A DNA stretch of 63,902 nt, counting the filler, from Welwitschia mirabilis (lineage: Eukaryota), in NCBI GenBank assembly GCA_051453625.1. It is 7 parts of one record of this genome, joined end to end, with 100 filler letters (N's around TTAATTAATTAA, not from the genome) between each part and the next. Parts side by side here need not be neighbours in the genome. Positions count along the whole stretch, not along the records: positions 24,547 to 41,050 come from JBOZIK010000001.1; positions 41,151 to 57,699 come from JBOZIK010000001.1; 5 more parts are not named here. One strand, 5' to 3'. Each line of letters begins with the position of its first letter. Position 1 is the stretch's first letter. The notes beneath the pieces were generated by a model. That model had not been told where the DNA came from. It made no database searches and was given only the letters and a program-made list of their open reading frames with translations. This document shows positions 13,324 to 61,723 of this stretch, one piece after another. Both the position numbers and the translations under genes were made by a program.

Positions 13324-13423
13324 NNNNNNNNNNNNNNNNNNNNNNNNNNNNNNNNNNNNNNNNNNNNTTAATTAATTAANNNNNNNNNNNNNNNNNNNNN
13401 NNNNNNNNNNNNNNNNNNNNNNN
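13324..13423. other. Artificial 100-bp scaffold linker N44-TTAATTAATTAA-N44 (cores also at 18957, 24491, 41095, 57744, 61500)
   Basis: Identical six-frame-stop 12-mer centred in fixed-length N runs. Confidence 0.95.
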
Positions 13424-18912: not shown

Positions 18913-19012
18913 NNNNNNNNNNNNNNNNNNNNNNNNNNNNNNNNNNNNNNNNNNNNTTAATTAATTAANNNNNNNNNNNNNNNNNNNNNNNNNNNNNNNN
19001 NNNNNNNNNNNN

Positions 19013-31734: not shown

Positions 31735-32669
31735 ATCTAGTTGCAATAATACAACACTTAGACCATAAAAGCATAAAGAAATAGACTTAGTGATGAGATG
31801 TCAAAAATAGGAATGTTTTTATAGAAATAGATTGAATTTAGGATTTAGGATAATCCCAAGGCCTAAGAGTCTTGTTAAAGCTTAAAGACCAAGGGGATTT
31901 CCTTTATAACGTTCATCACTAATGCTATAAGACACCCTTCAATTTTAAATGCAAGCTTTTTCTATACCAATTTGCTAGTTCTTCTATAAAAATAATGCAA
32001 GTACTATAACCATATTTTGTATGGTTTTGTATAGTTATCATAATTTTTAAAAATTTTCAAGAAATAAATTTCTTAAAAACTTTTTGAAAAATACTGCATT
32101 GATTTTTACTTCTAACCCAAGAATTAATGTTTCTAATGCATGAAATAATGCTCCTATGCATGGAAAAATGCCTCTGCCAAAAAGATTAATATCTCTACCT
32201 CAAAACTGATACTTGAAATAAAGTCTCTACCAAAAAGATTAATGTCTCTGCCTCAAAACTAATACTTGAAATAATGTGTTTGCCACTTGGCATAAAGTAT
32301 CACTAGCTTGAATTAATGCCTTTGACTTCTCCATTAACATTGATGCTATCATGCTTAGCTAGCTGAGCATTGACCAAATATGTATGGATAAAGCTTGAGA
32401 CCTTATAAGTAATTGCATTAATGGCCCCATCGGTGATCGCATCTATGAGAGCATGGTCAGAGGCTGCAGAGTACATGGTAGGTGGCATGGAGGGTTAAGC
32501 TAGTCATGCCTGACTAAGGATGATTGCATAGGCAATAGGTGATGTGGATCACTAAATTGATAGCACAAGCTCAGATTACATTGGCTTCGTGTGAGGCTGT
32601 GTTGATGAACTAGAAGCAGAGAAGCCGAAGGCAAAAAGAGCACAAAAAAGCGCTAACTGACAAACCATG

Positions 32670-34831
32670 AAAAAGTTTAGTGATCGTAGAGTAGATAGAG
32701 CAAAAACAATTTAATTTTGGTGAAGTTGTCCTAAATCCACACCAGATGGCCCATAATCCCCTAAAGCACTCTTCATCTTCAACATATTATTTTTTCCACC
32801 ATTTATTTTATCATTTTTATTACCATTCAAAGTATTTTCAAATTGATCTTTTGCAAAATTATCAATATTGGAATCTGAAAAATATTCAACTTCATTTGAA
32901 AAATTTTTAGCTTTATAATTTGAAAAGATTTTTAGCTTTATAATTTGAAAAGGTTGAAATGTTACCTACTTCTTCATCCTGAAAACCTGCTCCAAATCTC
33001 ATGAAAATCAGTGGGGCTATGTGGGCAGTTGCGATGACGTGGGTAGCTATGTGGATGGCTGTGTTGATGACCATCGGCATGGCTATGTTGGCAGCCATCG
33101 ACACAGTTGGCAGGATTGGCAGTTGAACTACAGGAAATACGGTTGAACCTACGTTGAGCTGGCAGTGTAAGTCTATCATGGTAGCGTCTGTTTGCTACAA
33201 GCACAAGGTGGCGTCTGTTCGCTATCGAAAAAAGGTGGTGTTTGGTTGCTACGGGCGTAGGTCTAGCACAGGCACTGCTTACTAGGACGAGAACTGCAGG
33301 CGTACAAGCCAAGTAGGAGCTACTGTCACTATGGTTTATGGCTCTATCAGTGCGCTTGGGCTGGCACTACCGATTCTCATAGGCAGTTTTGCAGGAAACA
33401 AGCAGGCAGGAGAGGAGGAAGAGGTAGGCAAGTAGGAAGAAGCAGGGGAGCGCGAGGCAGAAGATGCAAAGAAAGAGTCACTAGAATGAGAGCACACAAA
33501 GAGAGAAGAAGACGCAGAGAAAGAAGAGCTGGAACGTGAGAAATCACAGGGCCGCGAATTTAGGTCGCGAGACTGCGGACACCGCAGATGTAAGCACAGT
33601 GAGCAGGACTACGGGTGCCGTGGATGTGCGTATAGGAAGTTGGACTATGGCCACTGCGGATTAAGCCAGACCTGCATGTATCTTCATGACCGAGAGCATG
33701 TTTGAATGTGCAGTTGTGATCACAAGTAGTGAGGAGCAACCAAAGAAGGATGAGGGGTAGGAGAAGGGCCGTGAATAGGGAAGGAATTATAGTCAAAACC
33801 CATGCCATTAGAGAAAATGTCGTCAGAAAGATCTGAAGCAACGGCATCAGAATTTATTTTTGCATTGGCGAGACTGACATGGATTAATGTTGTTTTCATG
33901 CTAATGGAGATCATTTGCAGTGTCATTCAAAATTGATTCAAGTTCATCATGTGGTATAATTTTTCCCAGAACCTTGTGAAGGATTTAGAGAATAGAATTC
34001 TCTATTGGCATGACGTCGACAAAATCTTGGGCCTCCGTCTTTCATTGTAGCGTGATTTTTTTGGCCTCCTTTTTTGCTTGTTATTTCATTAACCAATCGG
34101 CACGTATGGCCGAAACCTTAAAGTCAAAAGAATAGATAATGTATTACAATACTGTTTCTTTATCTAGGATCTCAGCTTCAGGAGAAGATATAAGCGAGTT
34201 GAGATTACCTTTAGTTTTTAAAATAAGATGATTTATTTTATTTTCGAAATCTTGAACACCAACAGTAAGAACATCAATATATGTAGTCATGAAATTTGAA
34301 TTATAGTGTTCTTAGATTTGAGTTGCCGTTTTGTAAAAAAGTAGAGCAAACTCCTTTCCAGAGAGTTTAATGGCTTCAAGAATATGCTCTGGTAGCTCTA
34401 ATAGTGGTTGTTTAGAAATCAAATCTTGAACTCAATCCTCCAAAAGTGTCTTCTCATTGACTAGAGCTTGAACACGATTTTTAGAATCCATGTTTTCATT
34501 ACCAAAAGAATCGATTTGAGAACAAAAATCATTTTTCTTAATATCCTTTTCATAAGTAAGAGAGGAAAACGCTTTACCAAGATTTGTAACTTGTTCCGAG
34601 TTATCTAAAGGCATGTTTGCTATGATCTCTCTCTTTTGACTGATTTGCACATTGTAATAAAAATTCTTCAATTTGAATTCTACTTTCCTTGTAAATATTT
34701 GACTTTCATAAAGTGGGAATGAGATCATTAACCTTCCTAGAGATAGATCTTGCATGAAGAGATGACGATGCAAGTTGCCTGAAAGGGGACAAAGTTGGCA
34801 TTTCATTAGCAGGATCTAAAGTTCTGACCAT
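32670..34831 (-). pseudogene. PLE ORF1 relic (Cys/His N-terminus, probable coiled coil, Ser/Pro/Arg low-complexity region, conserved Trp/Cys block)
   Basis: ATG at 34831 just after the pseudo-LTR: MVRTLDPA/MKCQLCPLSGNLHRH...KNRVQALVNEKTLLED*VQDLIS...AKKEAKK...FRGLWAIWCGFRTTSPKLNCFCSI. A homologous ATG and N-terminus occur at 46082 (+). Confidence 0.65.
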
Positions 34832-34967
34832 TGTGACAAGAAGAAACTTAGGTTTAGGTTAAACGTAGGAAGCAATCGCTGGTTGCTAGAAAACTCTAAG
34901 AAAGAACAGAAGGAAATTTACAAGGAGAAAAAAAAATTCTAAAAAACAAGTATTCATTAGCAAAGAA

Positions 34968-35017
34968 ATAACAAAAATGCTTTCAGAGGAATTTCACCTC
35001 CCTATCAGTTGTCTTGG
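34968..35017 (-). ncRNA. Hammerhead ribozyme motif, copy A (degenerate)
   Basis: Sense strand: gacaa CTGATAG GGAGG tgaaatt CCTCT GAAA gcat TT ttgtt. Confidence 0.65.
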
Positions 35018-35099
35018 ACTTGCTTACAAATGAATGAAAAAGAGCATCAAAGCTGTAGTTTATATAAGATGGGTGAGTGGGGCTACACCTCTTAAAATT

Positions 35100-35592
35100 A
35101 AATAAAAAGAGGTATTTTATTAAAAAATAAGGTTTTATTAAAAAAGGGGTATTTTATTAAAAAAAGTGGATATTTTATTAAAAGGAGTATTTTATTAAAA
35201 GGCTTATCTTATTTTGAAAAAAAGGGGGTATTTTATTAAAATAAATGGGGTTTTTTATTTAGAAAAGGGGTATTTTAATTAAAAAAAGGGTCTTTTATAA
35301 AAAGGGTATTTTATTTTAAAAAAGGGGTATTTTATTTAAAAAAGGGGTATTTTATTTAAAAATAGATGCATTTTATTTTAAAAAGGGGTATTTTATTTAA
35401 AAAGTTGTATTTTATTTAAAAAAGGGTATTTTATTTAAAAAGGGTTATTTTATTAAAAAATAAAAGGGTATTTTATTAAAAAAGGGGTATTTTATTAAAA
35501 AATAAAAGGGGTATTTTATTAAAAACAATAAAAGGAGTCTTTTATTAAAAAGGGGGTATTTTATTAAAATAAAAGGGGTATTTTATTAAAAA
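35100..35592. repeat. About 20-bp AT-rich minisatellite expanded inside pseudo-LTR A
   Basis: More than 20 copies of about AAAAGGGGTATTTTATT(T)A. Only one unit at the matching position of pseudo-LTR B (36128-36155). Confidence 0.9.
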
Positions 35593-35785
35593 ACATCACC
35601 CATTTGATTGCTAGGTTGTAACACTTAACCCCATGAATTACAATGATAACATTACCAATTGTCTCAGAAATGGAAATGAGTCCTACATAAGTAAGAGTTT
35701 AGTGGATGTGAACTCCTTAGCTAAGTAATCGGTCTCGTGATGGCATGTCGTAAATAGGAATGTTTCTATAGGAATAGTTGGAATT

Positions 35786-35901
35786 TAGGATTCAGGGTTT
35801 AGGGTTTAAGATTTAGTTTAAAGTTAGGTTTAGGTTAAACTTAGGTTAGACTTAGGTTTAGGTTAAACTTGGGTTTAGGTTAAACTTAGGTTAATCTTAG
35901 G
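35786..35901 (+). repeat. Degenerate telomere-like tract (TTTAGGG/TTAGGT variants) between two pseudo-LTRs
   Basis: TTCAGGGTTTAGGGTTTAAG followed by repeated TTAGGTTTAGGTTAAAC. Confidence 0.75.
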
Positions 35902-36357
35902 AAATGGTCATTAGCTACTAGAAAACTCTAGGAAAAAATGGAAGGAGATTTACAAGGACAAAAAGATGCTTAAAAATAAATATTCATTAGTAAAGAAGTA
36001 AGAGAAGCACTTTTAGAGGAATTACACCTCCTCATCATCTGTCTTGGTTACAAATGAATGAAATGAACTAAGCATAAGAGTTGTGGTTTATATAGGATGG
36101 GTGGATGGGGCTATACCTGTTAAAATTAAATAAAAGGAGGTTTTTATTAAAAATACCATCCACTCCATTTGCTACGTTACAATACTTTAACCACATGAAT
36201 TACAATGATAACATTACTAATTGTTTTGAAAATGAAAATGAGTCCTACATAAGTAAGTAAGATCTTAGTGGATGTGGATTCCTTTAGCAAGTAACCGATC
36301 TCGTGATGGCACATTATAAATGGGAATGTTTCTGCAAAAATAGTTAGAATTTAGGAT
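35900..36357 (-). repeat. 3' pseudo-LTR (copy B) of the RT-bearing PLE
   Basis: Direct repeat of 34845-35793. Homologous to 45622-46066 and 48707-49095. Overlaps the last RT codons. No TG...CA ends, PBS or PPT. Confidence 0.8.
35999..36047 (-). ncRNA. Hammerhead ribozyme motif, copy B (degenerate)
   Basis: Sense strand: gacag ATGATGA GGAGG tgtaatt CCTCT AAAA gtgc TT ctctt. Confidence 0.6.
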
Positions 36358-37675
36358 TGAGGATATCCCCAAGCCCTAAGTTCCTTATCAAAGGAGAATA
36401 ATTAAGCTTGATGATCAAGGGGATTTCCTTCTTATTAATTCCACCACAAGTGCAAAGAAGCCTTAAACGGATCATCGATGAAACCTATGAGAAGCACAGC
36501 ATGAGAAAATAAGTAGGATAGCCTCATGTAGATAATCGCTAAAAGAACAAATGTTTATAAAGAGCAAATTGTCCTAAAGAGGACTTCCAAATAAGAAATC
36601 TTGTGAGCTCTCCTCTAATGAATGCTTTCTTCTAATGCGGTGGGTGGCATGACTGGAAGGAAATATATTGAAATGCATTAAGAGGCTTTTAATAATAGCT
36701 AGTGGAAAGAATTCCATTAGTAGGGAAACATGGGTTCTTAAAGATGGTTAAATCAAGGAAGCCTATTGTTTTATCAGAAACAACATGAGAAATGCAAATG
36801 TGGTTATACATAACACCATGACAAATATCAAAGGTATCATCAATATAGTGGTAGCATAAGATGAGATGCTAAGAAAAAATTGGTAATATTTTGTCTTCCA
36901 AATCATAAAGAAAATAATAGGCATAGATGACCACAAAGTTGCTACCCATTGGTATGCCACAAATTTATCTGTAAAAGGAACCATTAAATTCTAAATAAGG
37001 CTAAAGAAGAATGAGATGTATTAATGCCTTAATTACTTCAATAAATCTTTCATGATTTTTATTAGGAAGAGGATACTTTCTGAAATATCAAAACATATTC
37101 TTGTTTAAAGAATTCAAGACATTATGATTGGGAATGCTAGGATATAGGGACTCAACATCAAAAGTTAAAAAAAATGATGTTAAGGAAAAGTTTTAAGTTA
37201 GAGAGAGAATGAATGAGGGGGAGAGGGAATCGAAGAGATAATTTGGATGGTTTTTAAGGATGGGAAATAGGAGAACATGAAGAACTTTGGAGGCTAGTTC
37301 TAGGATGTAACATTTGTAGGAGCAAATTAGGCATTCTACTAAGGTAGGATTTTTGGTAAGAGGTAGAAGGTACAAGGGTTTCTTTTGAAATGAGAGTTTG
37401 GGTGATGAATTTTGAGTAGGGTTGTAAAATATCTGAGAAATAGGTTATGATAGCTTAAAGCTTAGAGTGGATCAAAAACCAAGGCACCTCATCAACCTTC
37501 TCATAAACATCATGATCATTAAGCTACTAGAGATCTTCATTCAAATACTAAATGACATCAAAACATAGATTTCCAAGTTTTTATTCGATGGTTTGATAAT
37601 GATGCTTGAATCTCATCTCAAATTTTTTAAGGCTGAAAGAAGATGAGGTAAAAGCATCCATTTGTTAGAAAAAAT
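36225..37675 (-). pseudogene. Penelope-like reverse transcriptase, decayed, with no C-terminal GIY-YIG endonuclease
   Basis: Motifs in order: IIKPSNKNL; FYLLPK; FLTFDVESLYPSIP (A); EFNGSFYR*ICGIPMGS (B); YHYIDDTF (C); FLDLTI (E); Y*KPLNAFQYISFQSCHP; FIRGELTR; RLST*GYP; RNPHPLRSY, then UTR. Confidence 0.92.
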
Positions 37676-37681
37676 CACCAC

Positions 37682-38367
37682 TGCAGTGTGAATTTATGCA
37701 ATCCTTAAGTCCTTTTAGCAAATCTTGTAAATCACAATACTTACAGAAAACACACACTAGTATAGACAAGAGTCAACCCAAATGTCATAATCCATTGAAG
37801 GCACTATGCTAAAAGTTAGAGAATTTATTTCATAAAGTATTTTAGTCTTTTATCTTTTAGTAAAAAATATAAAATTAAAAAAAAATGCAATGTAATGCAA
37901 AATCAAGATGATGAAGTGAAATGGATTAAATGCAAGTGTAATGAATTCTATTTGGATTCCAATACTCTTATCATAAGAATTAGTTCTTACAACTTAGATC
38001 AATTAGGAAGAGTTCATCACTTATTCTTAACCAACATAAACTATAATATATGCCAAACAGAATATAGATAGTACAAATATGGACATGAAATAAAATAAAG
38101 TACAATGCAAAATCTAAACTAACAAAGTTAATCTTAACAAAGATTACCCTTATGATCTAAATAAATTTATGAGCTATTACCAAATTACAATCAACTTAAA
38201 TCATAAGGGACATTTACACAATAGGATTAAAAAGCGTAATTGAATTAATCATCAACTTTACATCCAATTATAATAAAGTAGCAGCACCTCAATGGAGGAT
38301 ACTTAGTCTAATACCAAGGTAAATGTCTCTTTGTAGCTACTAGATGGACTTGTTATTCTTTAATATT
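37682..38367 (-). repeat. Athila-family LTR 3' end interrupting the PLE RT
   Basis: TGCAGTGTGAATTTATGCAAT is the reverse complement of the family LTR end; body resembles 27443-27960. Confidence 0.7.
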
Positions 38368-39289
38368 NNNNNNNNNNNNNNNNNNNNNNNNNNNNNNNNN
38401 NNNNNNNNNNNNNNNNNNNNNNNNNNNNNNNNNNNNNNNNNNNNNNNNNNNNNNNNNNNNNNNNNNNNNNNNNNNNNNNNNNNNNNNNNNNNNNNNNNNN
38501 NNNNNNNNNNNNNNNNNNNNNNNNNNNNNNNNNNNNNNNNNNNNNNNNNNNNNNNNNNNNNNNNNNNNNNNNNNNNNNNNNNNNNNNNNNNNNNNNNNNN
38601 NNNNNNNNNNNNNNNNNNNNNNNNNNNNNNNNNNNNNNNNNNNNNNNNNNNNNNNNNNNNNNNNNNNNNNNNNNNNNNNNNNNNNNNNNNNNNNNNNNNN
38701 NNNNNNNNNNNNNNNNNNNNNNNNNNNNNNNNNNNNNNNNNNNNNNNNNNNNNNNNNNNNNNNNNNNNNNNNNNNNNNNNNNNNNNNNNNNNNNNNNNNN
38801 NNNNNNNNNNNNNNNNNNNNNNNNNNNNNNNNNNNNNNNNNNNNNNNNNNNNNNNNNNNNNNNNNNNNNNNNNNNNNNNNNNNNNNNNNNNNNNNNNNNN
38901 NNNNNNNNNNNNNNNNNNNNNNNNNNNNNNNNNNNNNNNNNNNNNNNNNNNNNNNNNNNNNNNNNNNNNNNNNNNNNNNNNNNNNNNNNNNNNNNNNNNN
39001 NNNNNNNNNNNNNNNNNNNNNNNNNNNNNNNNNNNNNNNNNNNNNNNNNNNNNNNNNNNNNNNNNNNNNNNNNNNNNNNNNNNNNNNNNNNNNNNNACAC
39101 TCACAGAATTTTCTTATAGTGATGTTTTAGATTATCTAAAGGGAAAGTAATGTAATATTTACTATTGTACTTTGCCCTTGTAGAATACATTAATGAACTT
39201 TTCATGCATCATTCTTAAGATTATTACTACTTAGGTTTTACACATCAGTTTTAATATCACTGTCTCACATTATGCATACACATTATCAT

Positions 39290-40335
39290 TTTCTGCCCAT
39301 GGATGATGTCATTTTTCCCGTGCAGTTCTCCATCCCTCCTCTTCTCTTGCTCACGGCTCCTCTCCCGCTCGCGGTTGTTCTCCTACCCGTGGCTCTTCAC
39401 CTACTTGCGGCTCTCCTCCTACTCGTCGTTCTCCTACCCATGGCTTTTCACCTGCTCGCGGCTCCCCTCTTGTTCGTGGCTCTCCTCTCGCTCGCGGCCG
39501 TTTTGCCCACGACGCTTCTTCTTTTGCTCGGGGCCTTTCTCATGCCCATAGCTCTACTCTCGCTCGCCTGTCCGTCATTCTTCCTGCTCGCCTATTTGTT
39601 AGTTTCCTTACTCTCCTGACCGTATCATGTTTCCCAGCCGTGCTCACAGACACTTCAACCAAAAACACGGCAGCCATCACCGTGCTTATCAGAATGCAGC
39701 AGCTAATGCAGCAGTTAACACGGACCAGCTCAATGCAGACCAGCACAACCATGGCTTGCTCAGCCGCCTCCTTCATCAAAATCACCAGCACATCGGCCCT
39801 CGCAGACCCACTGACCATCAACCTGACAAACAGCCCACTAACCACCAACTCAACAGAAAATGAAGCGGTCCTCATGGGCCCACCAATCCTCACAGGCACG
39901 CCGACCTTTACGCACTTCAAACAAAAGTCCGCTTCCACAAAAAGCCGGTAATTTTTTAGAGACTGAATTTTTTTCGGATTCTGAATTTGAATATTTTTCT
40001 TTTCTTGAAAAAGAGTTTTCAAATCCTTCAAAAAATAGATTTGAAAATAGCTTTGGAAATAGAAAAAATGGCAGAAAAAATGGCAGGAATTTTGGCAAAA
40101 AAATGATTTTTTAAGGAAGAGGAAGAATATTTTAAAGGATTATGGACCATCTGGTGTGGCTTCAAGAAAATCTCACCAAAACTAAATTGCTCCTGCTCTA
40201 TTTGTTCAACTGTCACAAAACTTTTCCGTGACATCTTCCATGAACATCCTTCTCAACCTAGAAGGCGTTTCAATTTTTGGGGCTCTTGTGTAAATTTCAA
40301 CCTGTTCTCTCTTATTTTATTCATTAAGATGACTC
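39290..40335 (+). pseudogene. PLE ORF1 C-terminal half (5'-truncated), including an 18-bp tandem repeat at about 39352-39500
   Basis: HGSSPARGCSPTRGSSPTCGSPPTRRSPTHGFSPARGSP; EFEYFS; FKGLWTIWCGFKKISPKLNCSCSICSTVTKLF, homologous to 32670-33560 (-). Confidence 0.7.
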
Positions 40336-40345
40336 NNNNNNNNNN

Positions 40346-41050
40346 GTTCATAATTTTTCACAGAGAGAGCTCAGTTATAATGAAATCAGATTACTTGGTT
40401 ACGGCCTAAAATTTAGGCCTTGTCCTCATTCTATGGCTTATGGGGATATTATGGATGAATTTCGTAGTTTTATCAGGTGGGTACATCTTAGAGCTTATTT
40501 TGGCACTACTCCAGACCCTTCCTCCTTGGGTCATCCTTTTCTAGATCATCTATAGTATATTCGTCTTAAATTCAGAATAGCCTCCCCTTGGAATCCTCTA
40601 GTTGATGATGATATAGGTCATTTTTGTCAGCATTTGAATGATGTCATTTTAGAGAAATTCTCTTTAATGGATTTTTCTAATAAACGCATGTTTCCGCCTT
40701 ATCTTCTTTCAGCCTTAAAAAATTTAAGGCGATATTCTAGTATTGTTATCAAACCATCAGATAAAAACCTCGGAATTTATGTTTTGGATGCTATTTGATA
40801 TTTGAATGAAGGTCTCTGGCAGCTTAATGATCATGATGTTTATGAGCAGGTTAATGAGGTGCCTTGGTCCTTGATCCATTCTAAGCTTTAAGCCATTGTC
40901 ACCCGATTTTCAGACATTTTACAATCCTACTCAAAATTCATCACCCAAATTTCTATTTCTAAAGCTAAGCCTTGCACCTTCTACCTGTTGCCAAAAATCC
41001 ATAAACCCACCTTAGTAGGACGCCCAATTTGCTCCTACACAGGTGACATC
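40346..41050 (+). pseudogene. Penelope-like RT N-terminal part (second copy), cut by a scaffold linker
   Basis: One 235-codon frame with 3 stops: VHNFSQRELSYNEIRLLGYGLKFRPCP; IVIKPSDKNLGIYVLD; QLNDHDVY; FYLLPKIHKPTLVGRPICS. 40667-41050 aligns with 37675-37310 (-). Confidence 0.93.
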
Positions 41051-41194
41051 NNNNNNNNNNNNNNNNNNNNNNNNNNNNNNNNNNNNNNNNNNNNTTAATT
41101 AATTAANNNNNNNNNNNNNNNNNNNNNNNNNNNNNNNNNNNNNNNNNNNNTTCTAATATAATTTTACATAGGGCTACCTCTTTAAGCTATTCTA

Positions 41195-41507
41195 GGCCTT
41201 CTCCTTGTCCTTGATTCATTCCACAGGGATTCACATCTTGGAAACATTTTTGCTATATGTGATGGTCACATTACCTATGTGGACTTTGGGAGCATTATAG
41301 TCCTTAGTTAGCAAAACAAGAAAATATTTATTAATGTAGTAGTGCACACTGTAAATGAGGATTATGTTGAGATTGCAAATGATTTTACAAGGCTAGGGTT
41401 TGTTTCTTCTGGCACAAACATAGCTTCAATCATCCCAGCATTAGAAGTAATATGGCAAAATGCAATTGGAAAGGAACTAGCTGATTTTAATTTTAAAAGT
41501 ATCAGTG
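41195..41507 (+). pseudogene. ABC1K1: ABC1/UbiB atypical kinase ABC1K1-like fragment (catalytic loop and downstream)
   Basis: FHRDSHLGNIFAICDGHITYVDFG...S*QNKKIFINVVVHTVNEDYVEIANDFTRLGF...PALEVIWQN...LADFNFKS, recognised as plastoglobule ABC1K1 (FHGDPHPGN...VHAVNEDY...ANDFTRLGF). Stop at 41309. Confidence 0.88.
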
Positions 41508-41751
41508 ATAAGGCTAAGTGCAAGGTAGATGCATCTAAGGATGATGTTGTAAAGATTAGGAGGAAGTTTGATGTGTTCATATCTAGTTTTTTAAAACATT
41601 CTAGTAGCTTGCATTAGATGCCTAAAATGAACCTAAGTGGTCTACTCTTTTCCCTTCTGGGTTGACATCAAGTCAGCAAGGCATTATGTAGATTAGAAAG
41701 ACAGGTAAGAAAAAAATAAATATTTTTTAATTTCCTTTTTTCATATTATAG

Positions 41752-42432
41752 AATTCTAGCTTCTCTGATGTCCTATGGATCAGTGTAAAAAATGCCATTA
41801 ATCCATTTCATTACAAGAACCTGTGAAATGGAAAATTCTTTATATACTGTCAGAATTTTAACAGTGGAATCATTTTTAAAATTCTCTATGAAGTATTTTA
41901 TATTCTATTCCTCAAGTTTGTGATTAGGTCCTCAAAAGGCTTCTCACCAAATTCATCAATAATAAGCTCTCCATTATAATCTAATTCTTTTAGATTAATG
42001 TCGTTCAATAATGAAGGAAAAAAAAACTGTTCAAGAGGCATCCCAACCTCTTCTTCTCTATTTGAAAATGCGATCTGGTTTGGAAAGAAGAACATCATCT
42101 TGAAAGGTATAAAGTTCTTTCATGTAAAACTCCTAAATGATGTTTTTCCTATTTGCTAAAACGTGGTGATCTTAGATAAAAAGGGGATCCAAATTACAAA
42201 GAAGATTATGTAGTTTCTTCACATAAAATGGAACAACCTCAGAACCTCTTCCAATGACATGATTATATAGAAGACTAACCCAGTATATTCCTGGCTTCCA
42301 TAAGATATCTATGCCTTGACCAACAAAAGAAACAACTGCACCTCTTAAAGAAAAAATAGTTTCCCTCACTGTTTGTGGGGTGTATTTACAAAATAAAAAT
42401 AGATTCTATGCTTCAAATCTAACACCTCTAGT
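41752..42432 (-). pseudogene. ABC1K1: ABC1K1-like N-terminal fragment, apparently intronless, with an internal deletion
   Basis: KYTPQTVRE...RGAVVSFVGQGIDILW...EVVPFYVKKLHNLLCNLDPLFI*DHHVLANR...QDDV; NGELIIDEFGEK; DSTVKILTVYKEFSISQVLVMKWINGIFYTDP. Confidence 0.85.
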
Positions 42433-45371
42433 AAGATTCTGAAAACCAAGCATGAAGTCTCATTCTTTGCTTCATCCTTTTGACTCTGTTTCTACAAGTG
42501 TACTTTTGATTTTTTTACTAGTGTCTAGACTACAACGTTTCTTTTCCCATTCAAACAAGATAAAGGGAAGCAATCCACTGAGGAGACGGTTGGCTTCTAG
42601 GGTGCCTACAATGAATGATTATTGCAACTAAAACATGGAATTACATCTATCTAATGTTTTCATTGAAAATAATCTCTATTTCTTGAAATTTTATGAGCTT
42701 TATGAGGCTACTCATATTGACGTTACTGGCAAGATTAAACTACAAGATTCATAAACCTAAACCACAATGCATTTAAATCCTACTAAAAAGAGAATCATGC
42801 ATGCCATTTGCTAGGGATTGGCTGATACTGGTTCTAGTGACAAACAGATACCACTTTAGCAGGAGTAATGGATGCCTCTTAATGAAACTCCAATTGGGGA
42901 AAAAAAAAGGATTGTCGCTAAAAGCCTATGGATTATGTTAAGATAGACCCTTTTTATTTCTGGATTCTTGAAAGCATTTGAAGTTTCGTATTGTTCACCA
43001 CTCTTGGCTGTAGAGGAGCTTTTCAAATTTAATTTACATTTAGAAATTTGTAGCTTGAAGCATGATGCTTCTTCTTCATTACACTCCTATCCTCTCTCAT
43101 GGAATAATTCCCCATCGAGTGCTATCTTTTCCCTATTTTTCTTAATAGATGTAGGAATACCTTATCTCGCTCTAGAGCTATTGAAAGGAAAATATTACTA
43201 GACATGTATGATCTAGAGACCTAGAAATAAATTATGCTCTGCCTTTGAACAATTGCAGCAAGGTCATAATGGATCTTTTCTTTTTTAGAAATAGGGTAAA
43301 CAATATTTTCAGAAAATAGGAACATTTAAATCAAGCTCATATGATTCCTCTACGTGAGAGCTATTTCAAATCTCTTCAATTTGCTATTTTCCCATCTTTT
43401 TTTGAGAGTGAATTCTTCCTAAATGCTATAAAGTAATCTCTCATAGATCCTTTTGTAATATTTTTCATATTGGATTAGATTAAGTCTGAGAATGACTTTG
43501 CACCAAGATGTTTTCTTCTGAGAGTCAAGAGGCCAAATGCACACTAAAAGAAAGCGTGTCTGGTTTCATGTGTCCACGATGAAGATGTAAATCGTGTATC
43601 TCCACACAAGAACAAGGCATTGCTTGACATAAAGGGAAATCTGATGGCGAATGAGGAATTTGATCTATGAAGATTAAAAAAACAACATTTGAAAAGCTAG
43701 ATTCCCCTCCAATTTCCCCAAATCTTTTTTAAACACCCCCTCCTCCCCCCCATCACCCCTCCCCCCCGCTACTCATTTGTTATCCTTGATCACTTGGAGA
43801 GGAAGAGAATCATGATGGACTTCTCTTCTTCCTTTGTCCTCATCACCCACCACTCCAGCCATTCATACCTCCCATTACTTCTGCCTTAGACTAGCTTAAA
43901 TAAATGCCTTTTATCAGGCTGTCATTTTGTGAAGTGTAGTGGCCATCTTGAAGGGACTCGGGAGAAAGCAGGAGGCCTTTTAATTGCTGCATTCTTGAGA
44001 AAAATTAATTTTGAGAATCTTTCATGATGATGCTNNNNNNNNNNNNNNNNNNNNNNNNNNNNNNNNNNNNNNNNNNNNNNNNNNNNNNNNNNNNNNNNNN
44101 NNNNNNNNNNNNNNNNNNNNNNNNNNNNNNNNNNNNNNNNNNNNNNNNNNNNNNNNNNNNNNNNNNNNNNNNNNNNNNNNNNNNNNNNNNNNNNNNNNNN
44201 NNNNNNNNNNNNNNNNNNNNNNNNNNNNNNNNNNNNNNNNNNNNNNNNNNNNNNNNNNNNNNNNNNNNNNNNNNNNNNNNNNNNNNNNNNNNNNNNNNNN
44301 NNNNNNNNNNNNNNNNNNNNNNNNNNNNNNNNNNNNNNNNNNNNNNNNNNNNNNNNNNNNNNNNNNNNNNNNNNNNNNNNNNNNNNNNNNNNNNNNNNNN
44401 NNNNNNNNNNNNNNNNNNNNNNNNNNNNNNNNNNNNNNNNNNNNNNNNNNNNNNNNNNNNNNNNNNNNNNNNNNNNNNNNNNNNNNNNNNNNNNNNNNNN
44501 NNNNNNNNNNNNNNNNNNNNNNNNNNNNNNNNNNNNNNNNNNNNNNNNNNNNNNNNNNNNNNNNNNNNNNNNNNNNNNNNNNNNNNNNNNNNNNNNNNNN
44601 NNNNNNNNNNNNNNNNNNNNNNNNNNNNNNNNNNNNNNNNNNNNNNNNNNNNNNNNNNNNNNNNNNNNNNNNNNNNNNNNNNNNNNNNNNNNNNNNNNNN
44701 NNNNNNNNNNNNNNNNNNNNNNNNNNNNNNNNNNNNNNNNNNNNNNNNNNNNNNNAATTTTGAGAATCTTTCATGATGATGCTTCATTAACTACTTTTTT
44801 ATCATCCACTTAACCTTTATCTTACATTAAAACCCTTACCAAAACCTCCTCCTTCCATGATCACATATATACTTATTACTTATATGATTAAACATTTACA
44901 TACATAATGATATGTTTATCATTTATTATTATTACATTTTTTTCCTTTCAAGTATTCAGCACATAAAGAAAAATTTTATAAAATTTAAGTTTGCTTTGAG
45001 AGATTACCACAAGGGGTAAGGATGCAAATAATTAGTTCACTAATTGAGTGCATTTTACATTAGCATAAAAAAGATATAAAGAACTTAAACCAAGGATTTA
45101 CACAGGATATATTAATTAATGAGTCCAATCATAAAAATTATTTAATCCACATAAAATCACTATAGAATTTATAAATTCATTGCACATTCATTATACAATT
45201 AAAAATAAGTCATCAAGGCCATCTAGAGGGGCATAAAACAGGGGTATAAATTAAATATATTTAAAATTTAATACTTGAATTAACTTGAGTTTTAAAGCCA
45301 TCACACAGATAAATGTGAAACATTAATAATAATCATAAAAAAAATTATATGCTAAAATTTGGGATATTATA

Positions 45372-45627
45372 CTAAACCTTAAATCCTAAAATGTAAAAAC
45401 TAAAACCATGCATCCTAAACACTAAACCTCAAATCCCAAACTACAAAAAACCCCTAAATCCTAAACCTCTAAACCGTAAATCCTAAACCCTAAACTTAAT
45501 ATACCTAAACCCTAAATTTAGTTTACTTAAATCCTAAATCCTAAACCTTAAATAGTAAATCCTAAATTTAATCTACTTAAACTCTAAATCCTAAATTTAA
45601 TCTAAACCCTAAATCCTAAAGCCTAAA
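45372..45627 (+). repeat. Degenerate interstitial plant telomeric tract, (CCCTAAA)n-like
   Basis: Several exact CCCTAAA units and many TCCTAAA/ACCTAAA/CCTTAAA variants. Confidence 0.85.
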
Positions 45628-45906
45628 TTCAATCTGCTTTTGCAAAAACATTTTCATTTTTGACATGTCATCACTAAATGTGTTACTTTATGCTTTTATG
45701 GTTTAAGTGCTGCATTATTGAAATCAGATGGATAATGTTTTCTATTATAATTAGTTTTATTTATATTCTATTTAGTTTTATATTATAGTTAGTTTTATTT
45801 TATTTTGTAAATGGTGTAATGACACCCATCCATCATCGATATATATACACACATACACACCCCACTATTAAGATGCTTTTAGTCATTCATTTCAGCAAAA
45901 TGTAAT

Positions 45907-45948
45907 ATAGTTGATGAGGAGGTGGAAGCCCTCTGAAAGTGCTTTTGT
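45907..45948 (+). ncRNA. Hammerhead ribozyme motif, copy C (near-intact core)
   Basis: atag TTGATGA GGAGG tggaagc CCTCT GAAA gtgc TT ttgt. Confidence 0.7.
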
Positions 45949-48935
45949 TGTTTTGCTAATGAATCTCTATTTTTGAGCATCTCTTTATTTCTTTGAAAAA
46001 TTGTTTTTTGTTTTTTCTAGAGTTTTCCAATAGCTAGTGACCATTACTTATGATTAAGAAACCCAAGATTTTTTCATTATGATGGTTGGATATTTAAATT
46101 CTACTAAGGAAATGTGGGATTTGGTCTATTTTAGATAACTTGCAACTTCATATCTGATGGCTGAATTTATCTCTAGCAAAGTTAATGTTTTCATTGCTTT
46201 TCTACAAAAAGCTTACATTTGTATGTTGTCAATATAGATTATAGAGTTTTGGTATGATATTGTTTTTTTGTGAAGACTGAACATAGCTTTAAGAGTAACC
46301 CACTCTTCCTCTAAAACTGACTTTAATTAGAGAGTGTTTTGGGACACCAGTGTAAAGGTATTTCTTTCTTTCTCTGAAGTTGAAATTAATATCACAACCA
46401 TTCTCACTATTTGGCCATTAAAAAAGAAACCCATAAAAAAGCAAGCTATAATGGAAATAATAAAAACAAGCCAAAATAAAAGTAAAAATAGAAGTTGAAA
46501 TTTTTTGCAGATATTAAAGAATCAAGCAGAAAAAGAAAAGTTATCAAATATGCAATTTTCTCCATTTTTACAGATGTCTTTCTTGAACTACACTATCTCA
46601 TTTCTATATGATAGTAGTCCAATTACTACCTTCATTATTTTCTTAAGAAATAACAACCCCTTACAGTTGCCTTTCTACCCTTGTTCATGTCCCTGTGAGT
46701 GTACTTATTTACAGGTTTACTCGCCATCACTCCCATGCCTTTTCCTCATAGTCATGTTGTCTTTGTATGTATCTGCATCTCAAGCACCCTACTCTTTGGC
46801 ATGTTCCTTAATGAAGCATGTCATTTTCTGCACACTATAGGCATGCTCACGTTGCTCGCATCTTTCATATTTCACTTCATACTATTTGGTCTCTGTGCAC
46901 CCACAGCCTTACTTACAACTGCGTTCTTGCCCGTAGCTCATCTCATAACCACATTTCTAGCTTTTGTGTTTTACTTTCATGCTGCTTCTGGTGTTCTTTC
47001 TTGCATTCGTAACACTCATTATCATGCATGTAGTCACGCCATTTTTAAACTTGCTCGCAGTTGCGCTAATGCCAATGTTTCTAATGCACTTTTAGTCCTA
47101 CGTGGAGAACCTTTCTCTATGCATAACAACATGCCTTTCTCCACATGCAAAAACTCACTTTTATGCATTTTCAATTCTAGCTCTATTGTTCCACTAGGAC
47201 TGTGTTTGAATCAAATAAATGCAGAGCTAGAGCTTAACATGCTTGTCACACCTGCCACTCTCTGTAGGTGAATCTAGGTAGACTATTTTGTTTCTATCAA
47301 TATATGCACAAACTAGAGAGCCCGTATATTGCGGTACTCTACGTGAAATGTCAATAGAAGTATTCTATTATGTAGCGCATATGTGTTAGCACCATGTCCC
47401 GCGATCCAACATTTAGTTGAATATGTCGAGCTAATAGTGAAATGCACCCTTGGGGACCTCACGTATGGTTGAAGCTGATAGTTTCATATAAAATGGATAA
47501 GTGTGCCATTCCACCACACCTAACATATATATATTTGTTGTAGTTATTGTTGTAGTTGTTATTGCCACAAGCGATGCCATTGCATTCTGTAGAACACTCT
47601 CACATGGATGCCACACGTGCTGTCAACTTAACCAAGAGCATCACTAGTTACTTGTGAAGCCATCCATTTAAGCATAGTTCTCATCTTTTGTTTTAATACT
47701 TGGCCTCTTATCCTGTTGGACCTTACCCTTTTCTATCTGCTAGCTATGCCTTCCCTTGTGTTTTTTACCAGCTAGACCTTCCCTATGTACCTATAGTTCT
47801 AAGCGTGTTGCCTTGTCGCACTTGCACTTTTATTTTTGTGCCCTTTTTTAACATACTCCTCTTCTTCTTTTGTGGTAACTTCTTCTTTGATGCACTCCTG
47901 TTAATTCTGTGTATTTCTTAGTCAATGCTTTCTATGCTCTTTTTTCCTTCGGCTTCTTCACTTCCGGTTCTTTAACACAGCCTTATGTGATGCTAATGCA
48001 ATTTGAGCTTGCGCTATCACTTTAGCGATCTGCACCACTTACTATCTATGTAGTTATTCTTAGCCAAACACGACTAGCTCAGCGTTCCACATTGCCTGCT
48101 ATATACTTTGTAACCTTCGACCATGCTCTCATAGATACAATCACCCATGGAGCCATTAACGTAGTCACCCATGAGGCCTCAAGCTTTATCCACACATATT
48201 TTGTCAGTGCTCAGCTAGCTAAGCATAACATCATTAGTATTAATGGAGAAGTCAGAGGTATTAATTCAAGTCAGTGGCACTTTATGCCAAGTGGAAGGTA
48301 CATTATTTCAAGTATTAGTTTTGAGGTAGAGATATTATTTCACGTGTCAGTTTTAAGGCAGAGAATTAATTTTTTTTTTTTTACAAAGGCATTATTCCAT
48401 GCGTAGGAGCATTATTTCATGCATCAAAAACATTAATTCTTATGTTAGAGGTAAAAATCAAGGTAGTATTTTTTAAAAAATATCTAAAAATTTTTAATTC
48501 TTGAAAATTTTTAAAAATTATAAAAATCATACAAAATATGGTTATAGTACCTGCATTATTTTTAAAGAAGAACTAGCAAATTAGTATAAAAAAGGCTTGC
48601 ATTTAAATTGAAGGGTGTCTTATAGCTTTAGTAATGAACTTTGTAAAGGGAATTCCCTTGGTCTTTAAGCTTTGGTGAGATGCTTAGTCCTTGGGGTTAT
48701 CTTAAACCTTAAATTCCATCTACTTCTATAAAACCATTCTCATTTTTAACATGTCTTCACTAAATCTGTTACTTTATGCTTTTATGGTCTAAGTATTACA
48801 TTATTATAACCGAATGAATAATGTTTTATATTATATTTAGTTTCACTTTATTTTGTAAGTGGTGTAATCACATCCACCCATTGTATATATACCACTATTG
48901 AGATTCTTTTAGTCATTCATTTCAACAAAATGTAA

Positions 48936-48979
48936 AGTAGCTGATGAGGAGGTGGAATCCCTTCGATAGTGCTTCTATT
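48936..48979 (+). ncRNA. Hammerhead ribozyme motif, copy D (near-intact core)
   Basis: agtag CTGATGA GGAGG tggaatc CCTTC GATA gtgc TT ctatt; stems I and II pair with G-U wobbles. Confidence 0.72.
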
Positions 48980-49269
48980 ATTTTGCTAATGAACCTCTAT
49001 TTTTTAGCATCTCTTTATCTCTTTGTAAAATTATTTTTCATTTTTATTAGACTTTTCTAGTAGTCAGTGATCATTACATAAGATTAAAAACCCTAAACGC
49101 TAACTGTAAACATTAAAGAAACCGTAAACCCTAAAGAAATCCTAAGAAACCCTAAACCTTAAAGAAACCTTAGGAGATCCTAAACCCTAAACCCTCTTTT
49201 TTTTATTATAAAAACCTCTTTTCATAAAATGCTTATTCTTAATTAAGAAAACCCCTTTTCATTACAAGA

Positions 49270-49660
49270 AATATAGGCTTTTAAGGCATTTCTAAAATTC
49301 ATTAAAAGGCCTTAAAAAAATGCCTTAAAAGTTTTTAAGACATTTTTTTCATAAAATTCTTTAAAAAACATTGCCTTAAAAGCTTACATGCTTTTAAAGA
49401 ATTTCTAAGGCATTTTTATTAGGATGCCTCAAAAGACATTTTAAGGTATTTTTATAATAAACACAAAAGGCTTTTTAGGTGTGTTTTTGTGAGAAATACC
49501 TTAAAAGGATTTTGAGGCCTTTTATCAAATAAACATCTAAAAATCCTTTTGAGACATTTTACAAGTTGAATGACTTTTGAGGCATTTTAGAAACTAAACA
49601 CCTTAAAAGCCTTCTGAGGTATTTTATCTAATAAATACCTTGAAAGCCTTTCTCATGAGA
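49270..49660. repeat. Degenerate quasi-palindromic repeat array
   Basis: Recurrent AAATGCCTTAAAAGGCTTTTAAGGCATTTT-like units in both orientations. Confidence 0.6.
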
Positions 49661-50819
49661 ATATATATATAAAAAGCCAAACTCTATATTTAAACCTACT
49701 CATATTCCAAAATAATAAAACCAGATAATTTGGAAAAGGAATTCTTTAATACATTACTCATTATCCTTATGAAATTTCTTCAAGAATGATCATTATGCTC
49801 TACAAAGATCAAAAATTGTAAAACTATCTCTTCAACATTGATTGATGTGAATACAACTTTCTACTATTTACTTCCACATGAACTATACTATTTTTGGTTT
49901 TTTTAAATATACCATAACTTTTTAGTTATGACTTTTTTTAATTATATTTTCACCAATCATCTATATAAAGTTACTAAATAAGATGAAAGAGATCACTAAA
50001 ATATAGAATAGCGAGTAAGTTATTTATAAACTTGTAATGTTCTCATAGAAGCAACCAATAGATCAATTCAATAATTATATCATAAAATAACATTGAAAAA
50101 GCAGACTCTAAGATAAATATCTTTTACCTTAAACATTTTTGGGCCATTTTCTGAGATATTTTAAACTCTAGATTCAAAAAAATCAAATAATCATAAAATA
50201 TAATTTTCAAAAATTAGCAGATTACAAGTTTACCTTTGATCCATTCATCACTTGAGAAGATTTCCTTTTATTACTATTTACCAATTGGGATTCTTTAGTA
50301 GCTCCTGCTTTTAATTTCTTTAAATTTTCATAATTATCATGCATCTTTTGTATCTCTTCTTAATAACAAATTAATATAACTTGATATTTGCTTAGGGAAA
50401 TATAACATAGAATAAATTGTATTCATGGAATATTATTTAAAGATTTTCAAATAATTACATTCTAAGAGAAGTAAGAACTATCACAACTAATGATCAATAT
50501 ATCATGATAAAACATTTTCATGAAAATGATAGTTTTTTCTATTGTGAATAATGTTAGATCATTATCCACAACATTTTTCCCTTATTGATTGAAAATTAAT
50601 CTTGTGATTCCATAGCGAGTTATGCATAATTAAATCTGTCATCCTTGTCTTAATGTTTTGATTAAAAGTTATAGTTTCAAATATTATTTGATGTATCAGT
50701 TAAAGAATATGAGAAACAGGTAATGTACTATACATAATTTTCAATACATATCAAAAGAATTTAAAATAAAGTCAATAAATTCCATGTGAATTAAATTATA
50801 AAATTAGTTAGATGTAGGA

Positions 50820-57300: not shown

Positions 57301-59419
57301 NNNNNNNNNNNNNNNNNNNNNNNNNNNNNNNNNNNNNNNNNNNNNNNNNNNNNNNNNNNNNNNNNNNNNNNNNNNNNNNNNNNNNNNNNNNNNNNNNNNN
57401 NNNNNNNNNNNNNNNNNNNNNNNNNNNNNNNNNNNNNNNNNNNNNNNNNNNNNNNNNATTATAGAAAATCAATAGAAGATATGTTTTTATAATAAATTAA
57501 TTATACTAATGTCTTCTATTTGTGTTGAAATTTAGCTATGCTCATATCTATCGTTAATATATTGTAATTCATAATATCATCCTAGGATACAAATCATACA
57601 TGGTTAAATCCGACTTTTACAAAATGTACTTGAATTTTCATTTGTAGTATAGTTCCAATGGCATTATTTCTCAGAGATAAATGATGAAATCTATCAATAN
57701 NNNNNNNNNNNNNNNNNNNNNNNNNNNNNNNNNNNNNNNNNNNTTAATTAATTAANNNNNNNNNNNNNNNNNNNNNNNNNNNNNNNNNNNNNNNNNNNNT
57801 GATGCTGGTTTACTCCAAGAAACTTGTGTCACTGTGTATGTTCCACATAGATCAATCTCGTACCATGATGCTTTTGATGTTATATTTAACCTATAAAATG
57901 ATAGTATTTAAGTATATTAGTAGTAAAATAGGACTTTCATTCTTAAGTGAAATAAATACATAAAAGCATCATGATGATTAATTAAACTAGCTAATAATAC
58001 TTTAATTGCTTAATATAAATGTTAATTTTTATGTTATCATACCTTCTAAGCAGGAATTTGCTAGTTCCTTAGCTAAAAAGTATGTTAAAAAGTTAGATAA
58101 CANNNNNNNNNNNNNNNNNNNNNNNNNNNNNNNNNNNNNNNNNNNNNNNNNNNNNNNNNNNNNNNNNNNNNNNNNNNNNNNNNNNNNNNNNNNNNNNNNN
58201 NNNNNNNNNNNNNNNNNNNNNNNNNNNNNNNNNNNNNNNNNNNNNNNNNNNNNNNNNNNNNNNNNNNNNNNNNNNNNNNNNNNNNNNNNNNNNNNNNNNN
58301 NNNNNNNNNNNNNNNNNNNNNNNNNNNNNNNNNNNNNNNNNNNNNNNNNNNNNNNNNNNNNNNNNNNNNNNNNNNNNNNNNNNNNNNNNNNNNNNNNNNN
58401 NNNNNNNNNNNNNNNNNNNNNNNNNNNNNNNNNNNNNNNNNNNNNNNNNNNNNNNNNNNNNNNNNNNNNNNNNNNNNNNNNNNNNNNNNNNNNNNNNNNN
58501 NNNNNNNNNNNNNNNNNNNNNNNNNNNNNNNNNNNNNNNNNNNNNNNNNNNNNNNNNNNNNNNNNNNNNNNNNNNNNNNNNNNNNNNNNNNNNNNNNNNN
58601 NNNNNNNNNNNNNNNNNNNNNNNNNNNNNNNNNNNNNNNNNNNNNNNNNNNNNNNNNNNNNNNNNNNNNNNNNNNNNNNNNNNNNNNNNNNNNNNNNNNN
58701 NNNNNNNNNNNNNNNNNNNNNNNNNNNNNNNNNNNNNNNNNNNNNNNNNNNNNNNNNNNNNNNNNNNNNNNNNNNNNNNNNNNNNNNNNNNNNNNNNNNN
58801 NNNNNNNNNNNNNNNNNNNNNNNNNNNNNNNNNNNNNNNNNNNNNNNNNNNNNNNNNNNNNNNNNNNNNNNNNNATATAATGCATTAAAAATTTAGTTGT
58901 AATGTCTTAAATTTTAAAAGCTAAAATATATGGCTATAAAATTTTAGAAATGACTAAAATAAGTTGGAAAAATGAGGGGTGAATATGATGATTTTGAAAT
59001 GGAAATGTGAAAGATGAATTTGAATTAGTGTATTTCTATGACTTTTTAATAGAAATAAAAGTTTTAAAAATATAGTAAATGTAATCAAGAGCATCTATGA
59101 AAAATGAAGNNNNNNNNNNTCTTATATTTCAGAGCCTAATAGTCAAATTAAGATGTTTGAAGTTTTGTGACAGTTTAGAATAAAATTTAGTTTTTTGAAA
59201 ATAAAACTTCACATTGATTTTCTATTAAACTCAAAAGACGTTATAATAAAGCAAGATGCAAGTACAATGTAGCTATTACAACCAAAAAATATAGAAGAAT
59301 AAGAGTGAGAGAGGGAGAAGATAAAGATGCCTTAATATAATAGATATTTATAAAAATAAATTTTGATATTTATAGAAACTTAAATTCTTGGTAGTTACCA
59401 TGATGATGCCATATACATG

Positions 59420-61456: not shown

Positions 61457-61723
61457 NNNNNNNNNNNNNNNNNNNNNNNNNNNNNNNNNNNNNNNNNNNT
61501 TAATTAATTAANNNNNNNNNNNNNNNNNNNNNNNNNNNNNNNNNNNNNNNNNNNNTCCGTCTATACTAGCGTGTTGTATTTTGCATCTTATTGATAATTA
61601 ACAGGATTGAAATTGAAACATGAACTATTGCACAAATACACATCGCAATAATGTTCTCCACTTGTAGGTAACTTTAAGCTTAGTACCAAGAAAATTCCTA
61701 TAGGTAAGAAATGAAAGAAAGAA

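Follow-up and report, generated by a model that had tools for sequence, protein, structure and literature searches.

The 63,902-nt stretch of the Welwitschia mirabilis genome analysed here (GenBank assembly GCA_051453625.1; hereafter the 63.9-kb window, along the whole of which all coordinates are counted) carries four short, related and visibly decayed motifs, and the question that they raise is whether they descend from a ribozyme and, if so, what kind of element carried it. A sequence-only reading of the window had proposed that they reconstruct a minimal type I hammerhead ribozyme of a Penelope-like element (PLE). Our analyses indicate, with a probability of roughly 0.8 and as judged from sequence, that the four copies (designated c1–c4, with hammerhead positions such as C3, G8, A9, G12 and U17 given in the standard numbering) are old, CpG-decayed type I hammerhead motifs of an endonuclease-less (EN-), telomere-associated PLE in a land plant.

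The four motif copies are in register over 46 nt each and contain no insertions or deletions (Table 1). All four are present where the sequence-only reading had placed them, apart from a shift of a few nucleotides in the in-register bounds, and the one or two core mutations that it had reported as different in each copy are the same as those observed here. To judge by these core changes, the copies in the window are dead relics without exception. The pairing expected of a hammerhead is largely retained in them: helix II (GGAGG with CCTCT or CCTTC) is paired in 20/20 cells and helix I in 18/20, two of its pairs having changed on both sides, which bears out the earlier claim that stem II is kept and that the variants of stem I still pair. 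The A15.1-U16.1 pair is found in 4/4 copies, with U17 next to it, and on the hammerhead model 42 of the 44 cells are paired in total. The features that have decayed in the window are the palindrome and the G-C pair next to the core, loop 3 having become GTGC or GCAT and the 10.1-11.1 pair having become G-U in c1–c3; by simple majority, c1–c4 have CCTCT and GTGC at these sites. A descriptor of the minimal hammerhead that allows at most one core mismatch matches c3 and c4 alone in the 63.9-kb window, leaving c1 and c2 unmatched, and finds 0 matches in 20 shuffles. The minimum free energy (MFE) structure of the majority motif recovers 10/11 model pairs as a monomer, and that of the homodimer includes an intermolecular AAGCGCUU helix. 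The motifs are parts of a repeat of ~450 nt whose copies are 67–84% identical and, because all four are embedded in this one repeat, they go back to a single ancestral event and cannot be treated as four separate observations. A small open reading frame (ORF) starting from ATGATG inside the motif was considered and rejected, since its stop positions vary among the copies.

The form of the motif in the family at large was read from two sets of DNA contigs (X4 and X3, which stem from two studies and bear two organism labels) and from RNA reads, all labelled as the same organism or a sister one and aligned to 48600-49200 at 80% likeness. Summed contig depth, which is not the same as copy number, reaches 366/322 in X4 and 934/732 in X3 over the two bins of 48936-48977, compared with 0.96–54 (X4) and 18–229 (X3) in the bins adjoining the motif and ~10–30 along most of the c4 unit; a second, smaller peak at 48852-48893 coincides with the TATA region. 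Most of the contigs resemble c4 over the motif alone and then diverge, and the motif is thus the best-kept part of a family with diverged flanks. Seven high-depth changes relative to c4 (Table 1) convert it to a motif with the CTGATGA/GAAA core, CCTCC, GCGC and a stem I of ACAG/CTGT, and no further core difference is listed over the CTGATGA of c4 in the run contigs. The changes at 48958, 48963 and 48967 are carried by 7 contigs in X4 and 9–10 in X3, and those at the other four places by 2–6. The intact motif of the family accordingly has a full core, a helix I of 4–5 bp, a helix II of 5 bp closed by G10.1-C11.1, and a helix III consisting of A15.1-U16.1 around GCGC.

These results also bear on the consensus that had been proposed from the window copies. 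Its CCTCC and GCGC are not the plain majority of c1–c4, but they are found letter for letter in the high-depth DNA contigs and in RNA reads, and the suggestion that GTGC and GCAT derive from GCGC by transitions (viz. CpG decay) agrees with the change at 48970 in the run contigs. The live sequence was thus correctly predicted from a few CpG-decayed old copies. A family consensus that lacked CTGATGA/GAAA or the stem pairing had been named as evidence that would speak against a ribozyme; the run-contig letters keep both. In the oligo-dT RNA run X16, to which 15 reads belong, the family letters at 48958-48970 are found in 10/11 to 11/11 reads and that at 48977 in 10/10, from which it follows that transcripts with an intact core exist. 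RNA run X13 yielded 0 reads and is no test either way.

The element that carried the motif is indicated by two copies of a PLE reverse transcriptase (RT) that lie head-to-head in the window (Table 1), an arrangement which is common for PLEs (PMC8557442). The frame of the minus-strand copy ends in a stop (36344-36346) at the point that corresponds to the C-terminus in a 604-aa relative, and c2 begins 306 nt past the end of this frame on the same strand, in keeping with the PLE and pseudo-LTR (pseudo long terminal repeat) context that the sequence-only reading had assigned to the motif. In the N-terminal frame of the plus-strand copy GxKF and DKG-like (here DKN) motifs are visible, both of which belong to the N-terminal part of PLE RTs (PMC8557442). 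A HMMER search with this frame, read through its stops, against 1.84 billion proteins gave 1999 matches at E<=1e-3, the best relative being 604 aa long and 44% identical (E 1.6e-48). Among 10 relatives that were looked up the named proteins are two, both of them Ginkgo gene models with 38–43% identity, and a domain scan of 10 matches found a weak RVT_1 in P0003, a clear RVT_1 in P0013 and GIY-YIG in P0030; among the close relatives GIY-YIG is present in 0/16 and RVT_1 in 10/16. A tblastn search of 150 relatives against the window found no match beyond the two RT regions and no endonuclease domain after the RT stop. The carrier is most readily classed as an EN- PLE, a placement made by homology and motifs. 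Less sensitive searches recovered little of it: Pfam matches for the 46 window ORFs of at least 75 aa were restricted to copia pieces, with none for the short PLE ORF pieces; a word-based homology search with an 80-aa PLE piece against longer proteins found no match where the exhaustive HMMER search later succeeded; and a protein-atlas look-up of the PLE piece led to DUF8422 clusters (flatworms, arthropods) that lie below the recognition bar and serve as a lead only. Upstream of the plus-strand copy there is an 18-nt GC-rich tandem repeat (39342-39570; 8 copies, 61–78% identical to the reference copy), which yields long ORFs on both strands that have no Pfam match.

Independent information on the motif comes from 80 metagenome loci with the same RT type (L001–L080), which were retrieved by a profile of 16 relatives and searched with a descriptor that itself requires pairing and the catalytic core. 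It identified 39 type I hammerheads in 36/80 loci, all 39 on the RT sense strand and 0 antisense, where shuffled sequences gave a mean of 0.05. Relative to the RT match, 25 of these hammerheads are located 202–927 nt after it and 14 at 1.0–2.0 kb before it, and this before-and-after placement is the pseudo-LTR pattern. In 39/39 the helix III is a single pair (A15.1-U16.1, replaced by a G-U wobble in two of the distinct motifs) closing a palindromic loop; the sequence-only reading had emphasized such a minimal palindromic helix III and its dimer logic, and both agree with the description of PLE hammerheads in PMC4209133, where they act as dimers and have a palindromic helix III. The loop is palindromic in 29/29 distinct related motifs, with palindromes of 2–6 nt (CTAG, TGCA, CG, CGCG, CCGG, CTGG and TGGCCA), G10.1-C11.1 is present in 28/29, and a bulge after A9 is absent from 25/29. 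The U at the cleavage position, which makes the triplet CUU and had already been pointed out for the window copies, recurs as U17 in 11/29, including the closest loci, L001–L005. The stems of L002–L005 share no sequence with those of the window family, yet both pair, and their loops 3 (TGCA versus GCGC) are both palindromic; in these loci as in the window a TATA box lies 48–51 nt before the motif, and a TTCATCAYTTGTA-like word stands between box and motif. Telomeric dimers are found among the 80 loci with the C-strand on the sense strand in 14/80 and the G-strand in 0/80, and in L011 and L071 the C-strand repeats follow the hammerhead by 130–170 nt, as they follow it in the window. In L029, L080 and L044 the RT is instead followed first by the C-strand repeats and, 140–190 nt after these, by the hammerhead, and the order of these features varies within the RT clade. 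A covariance model built from c1–c4 (R1) recovers L030, L031, L044 and L045 at E 0.015–0.04; its further site in the window, 31155-31200 (-) with E 0.88, was rejected as being at chance level and not homologous by eye, R1 being too sequence-specific.

The arrangement of the window copies permits the order of the element to be described. On the sense strand the RT ORF is followed by a 3' untranslated region (3' UTR) of ~300 nt (X) and a TATA box; the hammerhead comes ~50 nt after this box and is itself succeeded by a ~100-nt tail and C-strand telomeric repeats. Units lacking the ORF, consisting of this 3' part alone, occur head to tail or dispersed (Table 1). The units of c2 and c1 are head to tail, 1030 nt apart, and the start points of the c1 unit and c3, ~16–18 nt before the RT stop codon, differ by no more than 2 nt and in each case come directly after telomere-like repeats. 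The TATA box is found 50–51 nt upstream of the motif in c1, c2 and c4. At a spacing of ~90–110 nt downstream of the motif, degenerate CCCTAAA-type repeats are found after c2 and c4 and, in weaker form, after c1, and they precede the c3 and c1 units. Exact CCCTAAA and CCTAAA words are concentrated in these stretches and run in the sense direction of the element: CCCTAAA clusters lie at 45452-45607 for c3 and at 49091-49185 for c4, and the TTTAGG clusters at 35500-36000 are the sense C-strand for c2. From the conserved TATA box and the depth peak, a promoter seems to be present in the 3' end of the element, and the same box suggests a transcription start ~20 nt before the hammerhead.

Some further characteristics of these units were observed. 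A minisatellite of ~20 nt (AAAAGGGGTATTTTATT-like on the plus strand) is expanded at 35098-35600 inside the c1 unit, between X and the TATA box, and an unrelated minisatellite is located downstream of the hammerheads of L002 and L004. The partial copy at 31730-31948 (-) matches not only the X of c4 but also the 100 nt upstream of it (48600-48698, +), which are not found in c3 or in the RT-linked unit, and these shared 100 nt hint that some copies belong to a subfamily differing in its 5' part. The proposal that c3 and c4 are the two pseudo-LTRs of one recognisable element was rejected, as ORF reading and tblastn found no RT remnant in 46067-48698.

Table 1. Positions of the hammerhead motifs, their carrier element and other transposon remnants in the window, and of the letters by which the family differs from copy c4.
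Feature	Positions	Strand	Characteristics
Motif c1	34969-35014	-	core G8A and A9G (CTGATAG); loop 3 GCAT
Motif c2	35999-36044	-	core C3A and G12A (ATGATGA, AAAA); one C-C mismatch in helix I
Motif c3	45905-45950	+	core C3U alone (TTGATGA); passes descriptor with 1 mismatch
Motif c4	48935-48980	+	core A13U alone (GATA); stretch of the run-contig pile-up
Family letter, G>A versus c4	48937		helix I, giving ACAG
Family letter, T>C versus c4	48938		helix I, giving ACAG
Family letter, T>G versus c4	48958		loop 2
Family letter, T>C versus c4	48963		helix II strand, giving CCTCC
Family letter, T>A versus c4	48967		GAAA restored
Family letter, T>C versus c4	48970		GCGC; 293/304 of depth (X4), 603/655 (X3)
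Family letter, A>G versus c4	48977		CTGT; minority share in DNA, 10/10 RNA reads
Decayed PLE RT	36317-37693	-	tblastn match to residues 155-599 of the 604-aa relative P0003, 37% identity, E 8e-59
Second PLE RT, N-terminal part	40334-41044	+	one frame (40346-41050), 3 in-frame stops; cut off at gap/linker from 41051
3' unit after RT stop	35798-36362	-	X' 36187-36362, TATA box 36087-36094, c2, ~90-nt tail, CCTAAA-type telomere-like repeats 35798-35909
Second unit, ORF-less	34833-35796	-	X 35625-35796, ~20-nt minisatellite, TATA box 35058-35065, c1, tail, telomere-like stretch 34833-34877
c3 unit, ORF-less	45360-46066	+	degenerate CCCTAAA repeats 45360-45620, then X, degenerate TATA region, motif, tail
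c4 unit	48699-49195	+	X, TATA box 48884-48891, motif, ~107-nt tail, CCCTAAA-type repeats 49088-49195
Partial copy, X and segment upstream of X	31730-31948	-	84% identical to 48602-48805; TATA and motif parts not found
copia/gypsy remnant	12352-13146	-	
copia/gypsy remnant	2909-3196	-	
copia/gypsy remnant	14495-14725	+	
copia/gypsy remnant	15958-16275	+	
copia/gypsy remnant	16665-16907	+	

Self-cleavage of the family motif is predicted from its core, stems and palindrome and by analogy with described PLE hammerheads. A single motif would be unable to form helix III and would be inactive alone (after PMC4209133). Two motifs, located in one read-through transcript or on two RNAs, could pair via AGCGCU, form helix III and be cut after CUU, and transcripts that are multimeric or pseudo-LTR in nature would be processed by such dimer cutting. 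By annealing to telomeric G-overhangs, the C-rich repeats of the 3' end would prime reverse transcription in the absence of an endonuclease, in the manner that has been proposed for the Athena and Coprina elements (PMC8557442, PMC6431247). With transcription starting at the suggested point, the ribozyme would lie at the extreme 5' end of a transcript running into the next unit. The function of PLE hammerheads in general is called unresolved in PMC8557442.

A number of our results weigh against this explanation or limit the support for it. The intact core is present in 0/4 window copies, each of which has 1–2 core changes; the pair covariation within c1–c4 is not significant alone (120/500 shuffles reach the same level); and the folding energy of the majority motif is ordinary, 37/300 shuffles being as low for the monomer and 40/300 for the dimer. 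Cleavage at U17 is less efficient than at C or A. The depth summed over contigs does not measure copy number and contigs lose rare variants, and the X16 reads span the predicted cleavage site with no listed pile-up of ends, at a depth of ~10 reads that neither shows nor excludes cleavage. Because the descriptor demands pairing, the strand, the position and the excess over shuffles are the sole independent evidence that the related loci provide. A cut at the 3' hammerhead would part the ORF from the telomeric tail, so that its benefit to the element is not evident; the dependence on a dimer could prevent such a cut in unit-length RNA. In Athena the repeats are immediately adjacent to the hammerhead (PMC6431247), and in the window they are ~90–110 nt away. 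The Rfam search that had been proposed as a check also went against expectation: the hammerhead models have no match in the window at gathering score, none at E<=10 in 34000-50000 and none in 48915-49000, where Rfam at E<=10 gives chance matches of miRNA- or snoRNA-like type alone. This last point weighs little, for Rfam likewise gives no hammerhead match for L001–L020, though the descriptor finds complete motifs there; the models are insensitive to this variant, and their silence on the window is not evidence against a hammerhead.

These points have to be set against what other readings of the same data would require. That the resemblance to a hammerhead is due to chance, within an ordinary dispersed repeat, would accommodate the defective core of each window copy, the lack of a Rfam match and the unexceptional stability of the fold. 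It is nevertheless very improbable, since the family majority restores each core and stem position, the descriptor finds nothing in the 20 shuffles of the window, and the motif occupies a sense-strand site after the PLE RT at which the same kind of motif is found in 25 related cases, with a ratio of 39 sense to 0 antisense among the relatives where 0.05 would be expected. A more serious alternative is that the motif has been kept as an RNA fold, for recognition by the RT or for presenting the C-rich repeats to a telomeric overhang, and that cleavage is negligible in vivo. The monomer with its 1-bp helix III should be inactive, low activity in vitro is described for such motifs (PMC4209133), RNA reads cross the predicted site uncut, a cut would detach the ORF from the repeats, and the hammerhead of telomeric PLEs has been described as a 3'-terminal fold exposing the repeats (PMC6431247). 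A fold bound by protein would, however, not need C3, G5, G8, G12, A13 and A14 all to be invariant, whereas every catalytic-core nucleotide is kept in the family majority, and 29 distinct related motifs (for which the core was required by the descriptor) retain a palindromic loop 3 suited to dimers; we therefore regard conservation for folding alone as unlikely.

It is also unlikely, if slightly less so, that the ORF-less units form a non-autonomous family of their own, a plant counterpart of the animal type I non-LTR retrozymes, with transcription from their own TATA box, trimming by two hammerheads and a PLE RT acting in trans. The common start point of the c1 unit and c3 right after telomere-like repeats, the head-to-tail units of c2 and c1, the conserved spacing of TATA box and motif, and a contig depth over the motif far above that of its flanks would all be in accord with such a family, and animal retrozymes have been argued to derive from PLEs (10.64898/2026.07.22.740005). 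Against this, just two units are in tandem in the window, common start points could arise from segmental duplication of one array, and telomeric PLE arrays normally hold 5'-truncated copies capped by telomeric repeats (PMC6431247); circular or unit-length junctions are also not listed in the DNA and RNA run alignments, a look that had no dedicated data behind it. A related and similarly doubtful extension of the hammerhead-bearing EN- PLE that we favour is that a seed plant holds a transcribed, high-copy family of this kind in which the units made up of the 3' UTR only are autonomous transcription units, the 3' promoter of one driving the next and paired hammerheads trimming the transcripts to unit length. 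A promoter in the 3' end of one unit that drives the next resembles Drosophila HeT-A. If true, these units would be the first counterpart of the animal type I retrozymes to come from a plant, and a seed plant would possess a retroelement system that targets telomeres, in a lineage in which PLEs are little known or thought to be absent.

The surroundings of these elements in the window are poor in GC. The GC content is 21–35% per 4-kb bin, apart from one bin, mostly assembly gap, with 12%. Six identical linkers of 100 nt (44 N, TTAATTAATTAA, 44 N) are located at 13324-13423, 18913-19012, 24447-24546, 41051-41150, 57700-57799 and 61456-61555; they join separate contigs, and adjacency across them is therefore uncertain. 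The window contains 22 further N runs. Directly after the linker that begins at 41051 there is an exon resembling the chloroplast ABC1 kinase ABC1K1 (41186-41614, +), which has an in-frame stop at 41309-41311 and an altered catalytic-loop word, is 52–57% identical to many angiosperm sequences alike and had no useful match in the atlas look-up; by its sequence it is probably a pseudogene fragment. Remnants of Ty1/copia elements (viz. Pfam Pol_BBD, gag_pre-integrs and rve) are accompanied by Ty3/gypsy-like protease, RT and integrase pieces recognized by eye, and one copia piece shares no more than 58% identity with plant polyproteins. Together with the ABC1K1-like exon and the low GC content, these remnants point to a land plant as host. 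A long hairpin in an AT-rich repeat just after the c4 unit (49417-49526), which scores 38.7 bits with the plant miRNA family MIR9486 against a gathering score of 100, is probably an inverted repeat resembling a miniature inverted-repeat transposable element (MITE).

The significance of the family lies in what it adds to the known distribution of such elements. The hammerheads of PLEs are well documented for animals; for plants, the texts consulted name Selaginella alone, with canonical hammerheads. PLEs have been called absent from angiosperms (PMC8557442), EN- PLEs have been listed for Selaginella and conifers (PMC9033089), and telomere-associated transposons are described as rare among plants in a review of 2025 (PMC12477314). 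The literature that was searched contained no paper joining PLE, hammerhead and gymnosperm, the supplementary hammerhead lists of PMC4209133 and PMC8557442 lying outside that search. With an intact motif that two DNA data sets show to be abundant and that also occurs in poly(A) RNA, the family offers a plant system for testing the role of PLE hammerheads as well as telomere-primed retrotransposition in plants, and it indicates that Rfam-based screens miss hammerhead variants of this kind.

Compared with known systems, the motif is closest to the PLE hammerheads of PMC4209133, with which it shares the type I topology, a helix I of 4–5 bp, G10.1-C11.1 and a one-pair helix III around a 4-nt palindrome, as well as a terminal-repeat or 3' site on the sense strand and many diverged genomic copies. 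It differs from them in having no unpaired nucleotide between A9 and 10.1, in a helix II of 5 bp in place of 6–8 bp, in the cleavage nucleotide U17, and in its host, since in the text of that paper the minimal, palindromic form is assigned to metazoan PLEs and Selaginella has a canonical type I form, whereas the host here is a plant. The short, non-coding, transcribed and partly tandem hammerhead units recall retrozymes, in which the plant LTR type has type III hammerheads and the animal non-LTR type has type I; lacking LTR, primer-binding-site and polypurine-tract features and the type III topology, the window units are not a plant LTR retrozyme. The carrier itself resembles the EN- PLEs of Selaginella and conifers (PMC9033089) in its plant host and endonuclease-less RT, with Ginkgo relatives at 38–43% identity. 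EN- PLEs with reverse-complement telomeric repeats and an adjacent hammerhead have been described (PMC8557442, PMC6431247), and the likeness to these telomeric elements (also via PMC12477314) extends to an ORF for the RT only, without GIY-YIG, 3' reverse-complement telomeric repeats, a hammerhead close to the 3' end, layouts both head to tail and inverted, and ORF-less units after telomeric repeats. The window copies differ from them in that their repeats are plant-type (CCCTAAA-like and degenerate) and ~90–110 nt off the hammerhead, and in that they are old and lie among copia and gypsy remnants. One land plant would on this evidence hold the full package, viz. an EN- RT, a TATA box, a dimer-type hammerhead and plant-type reverse-complement telomeric repeats.

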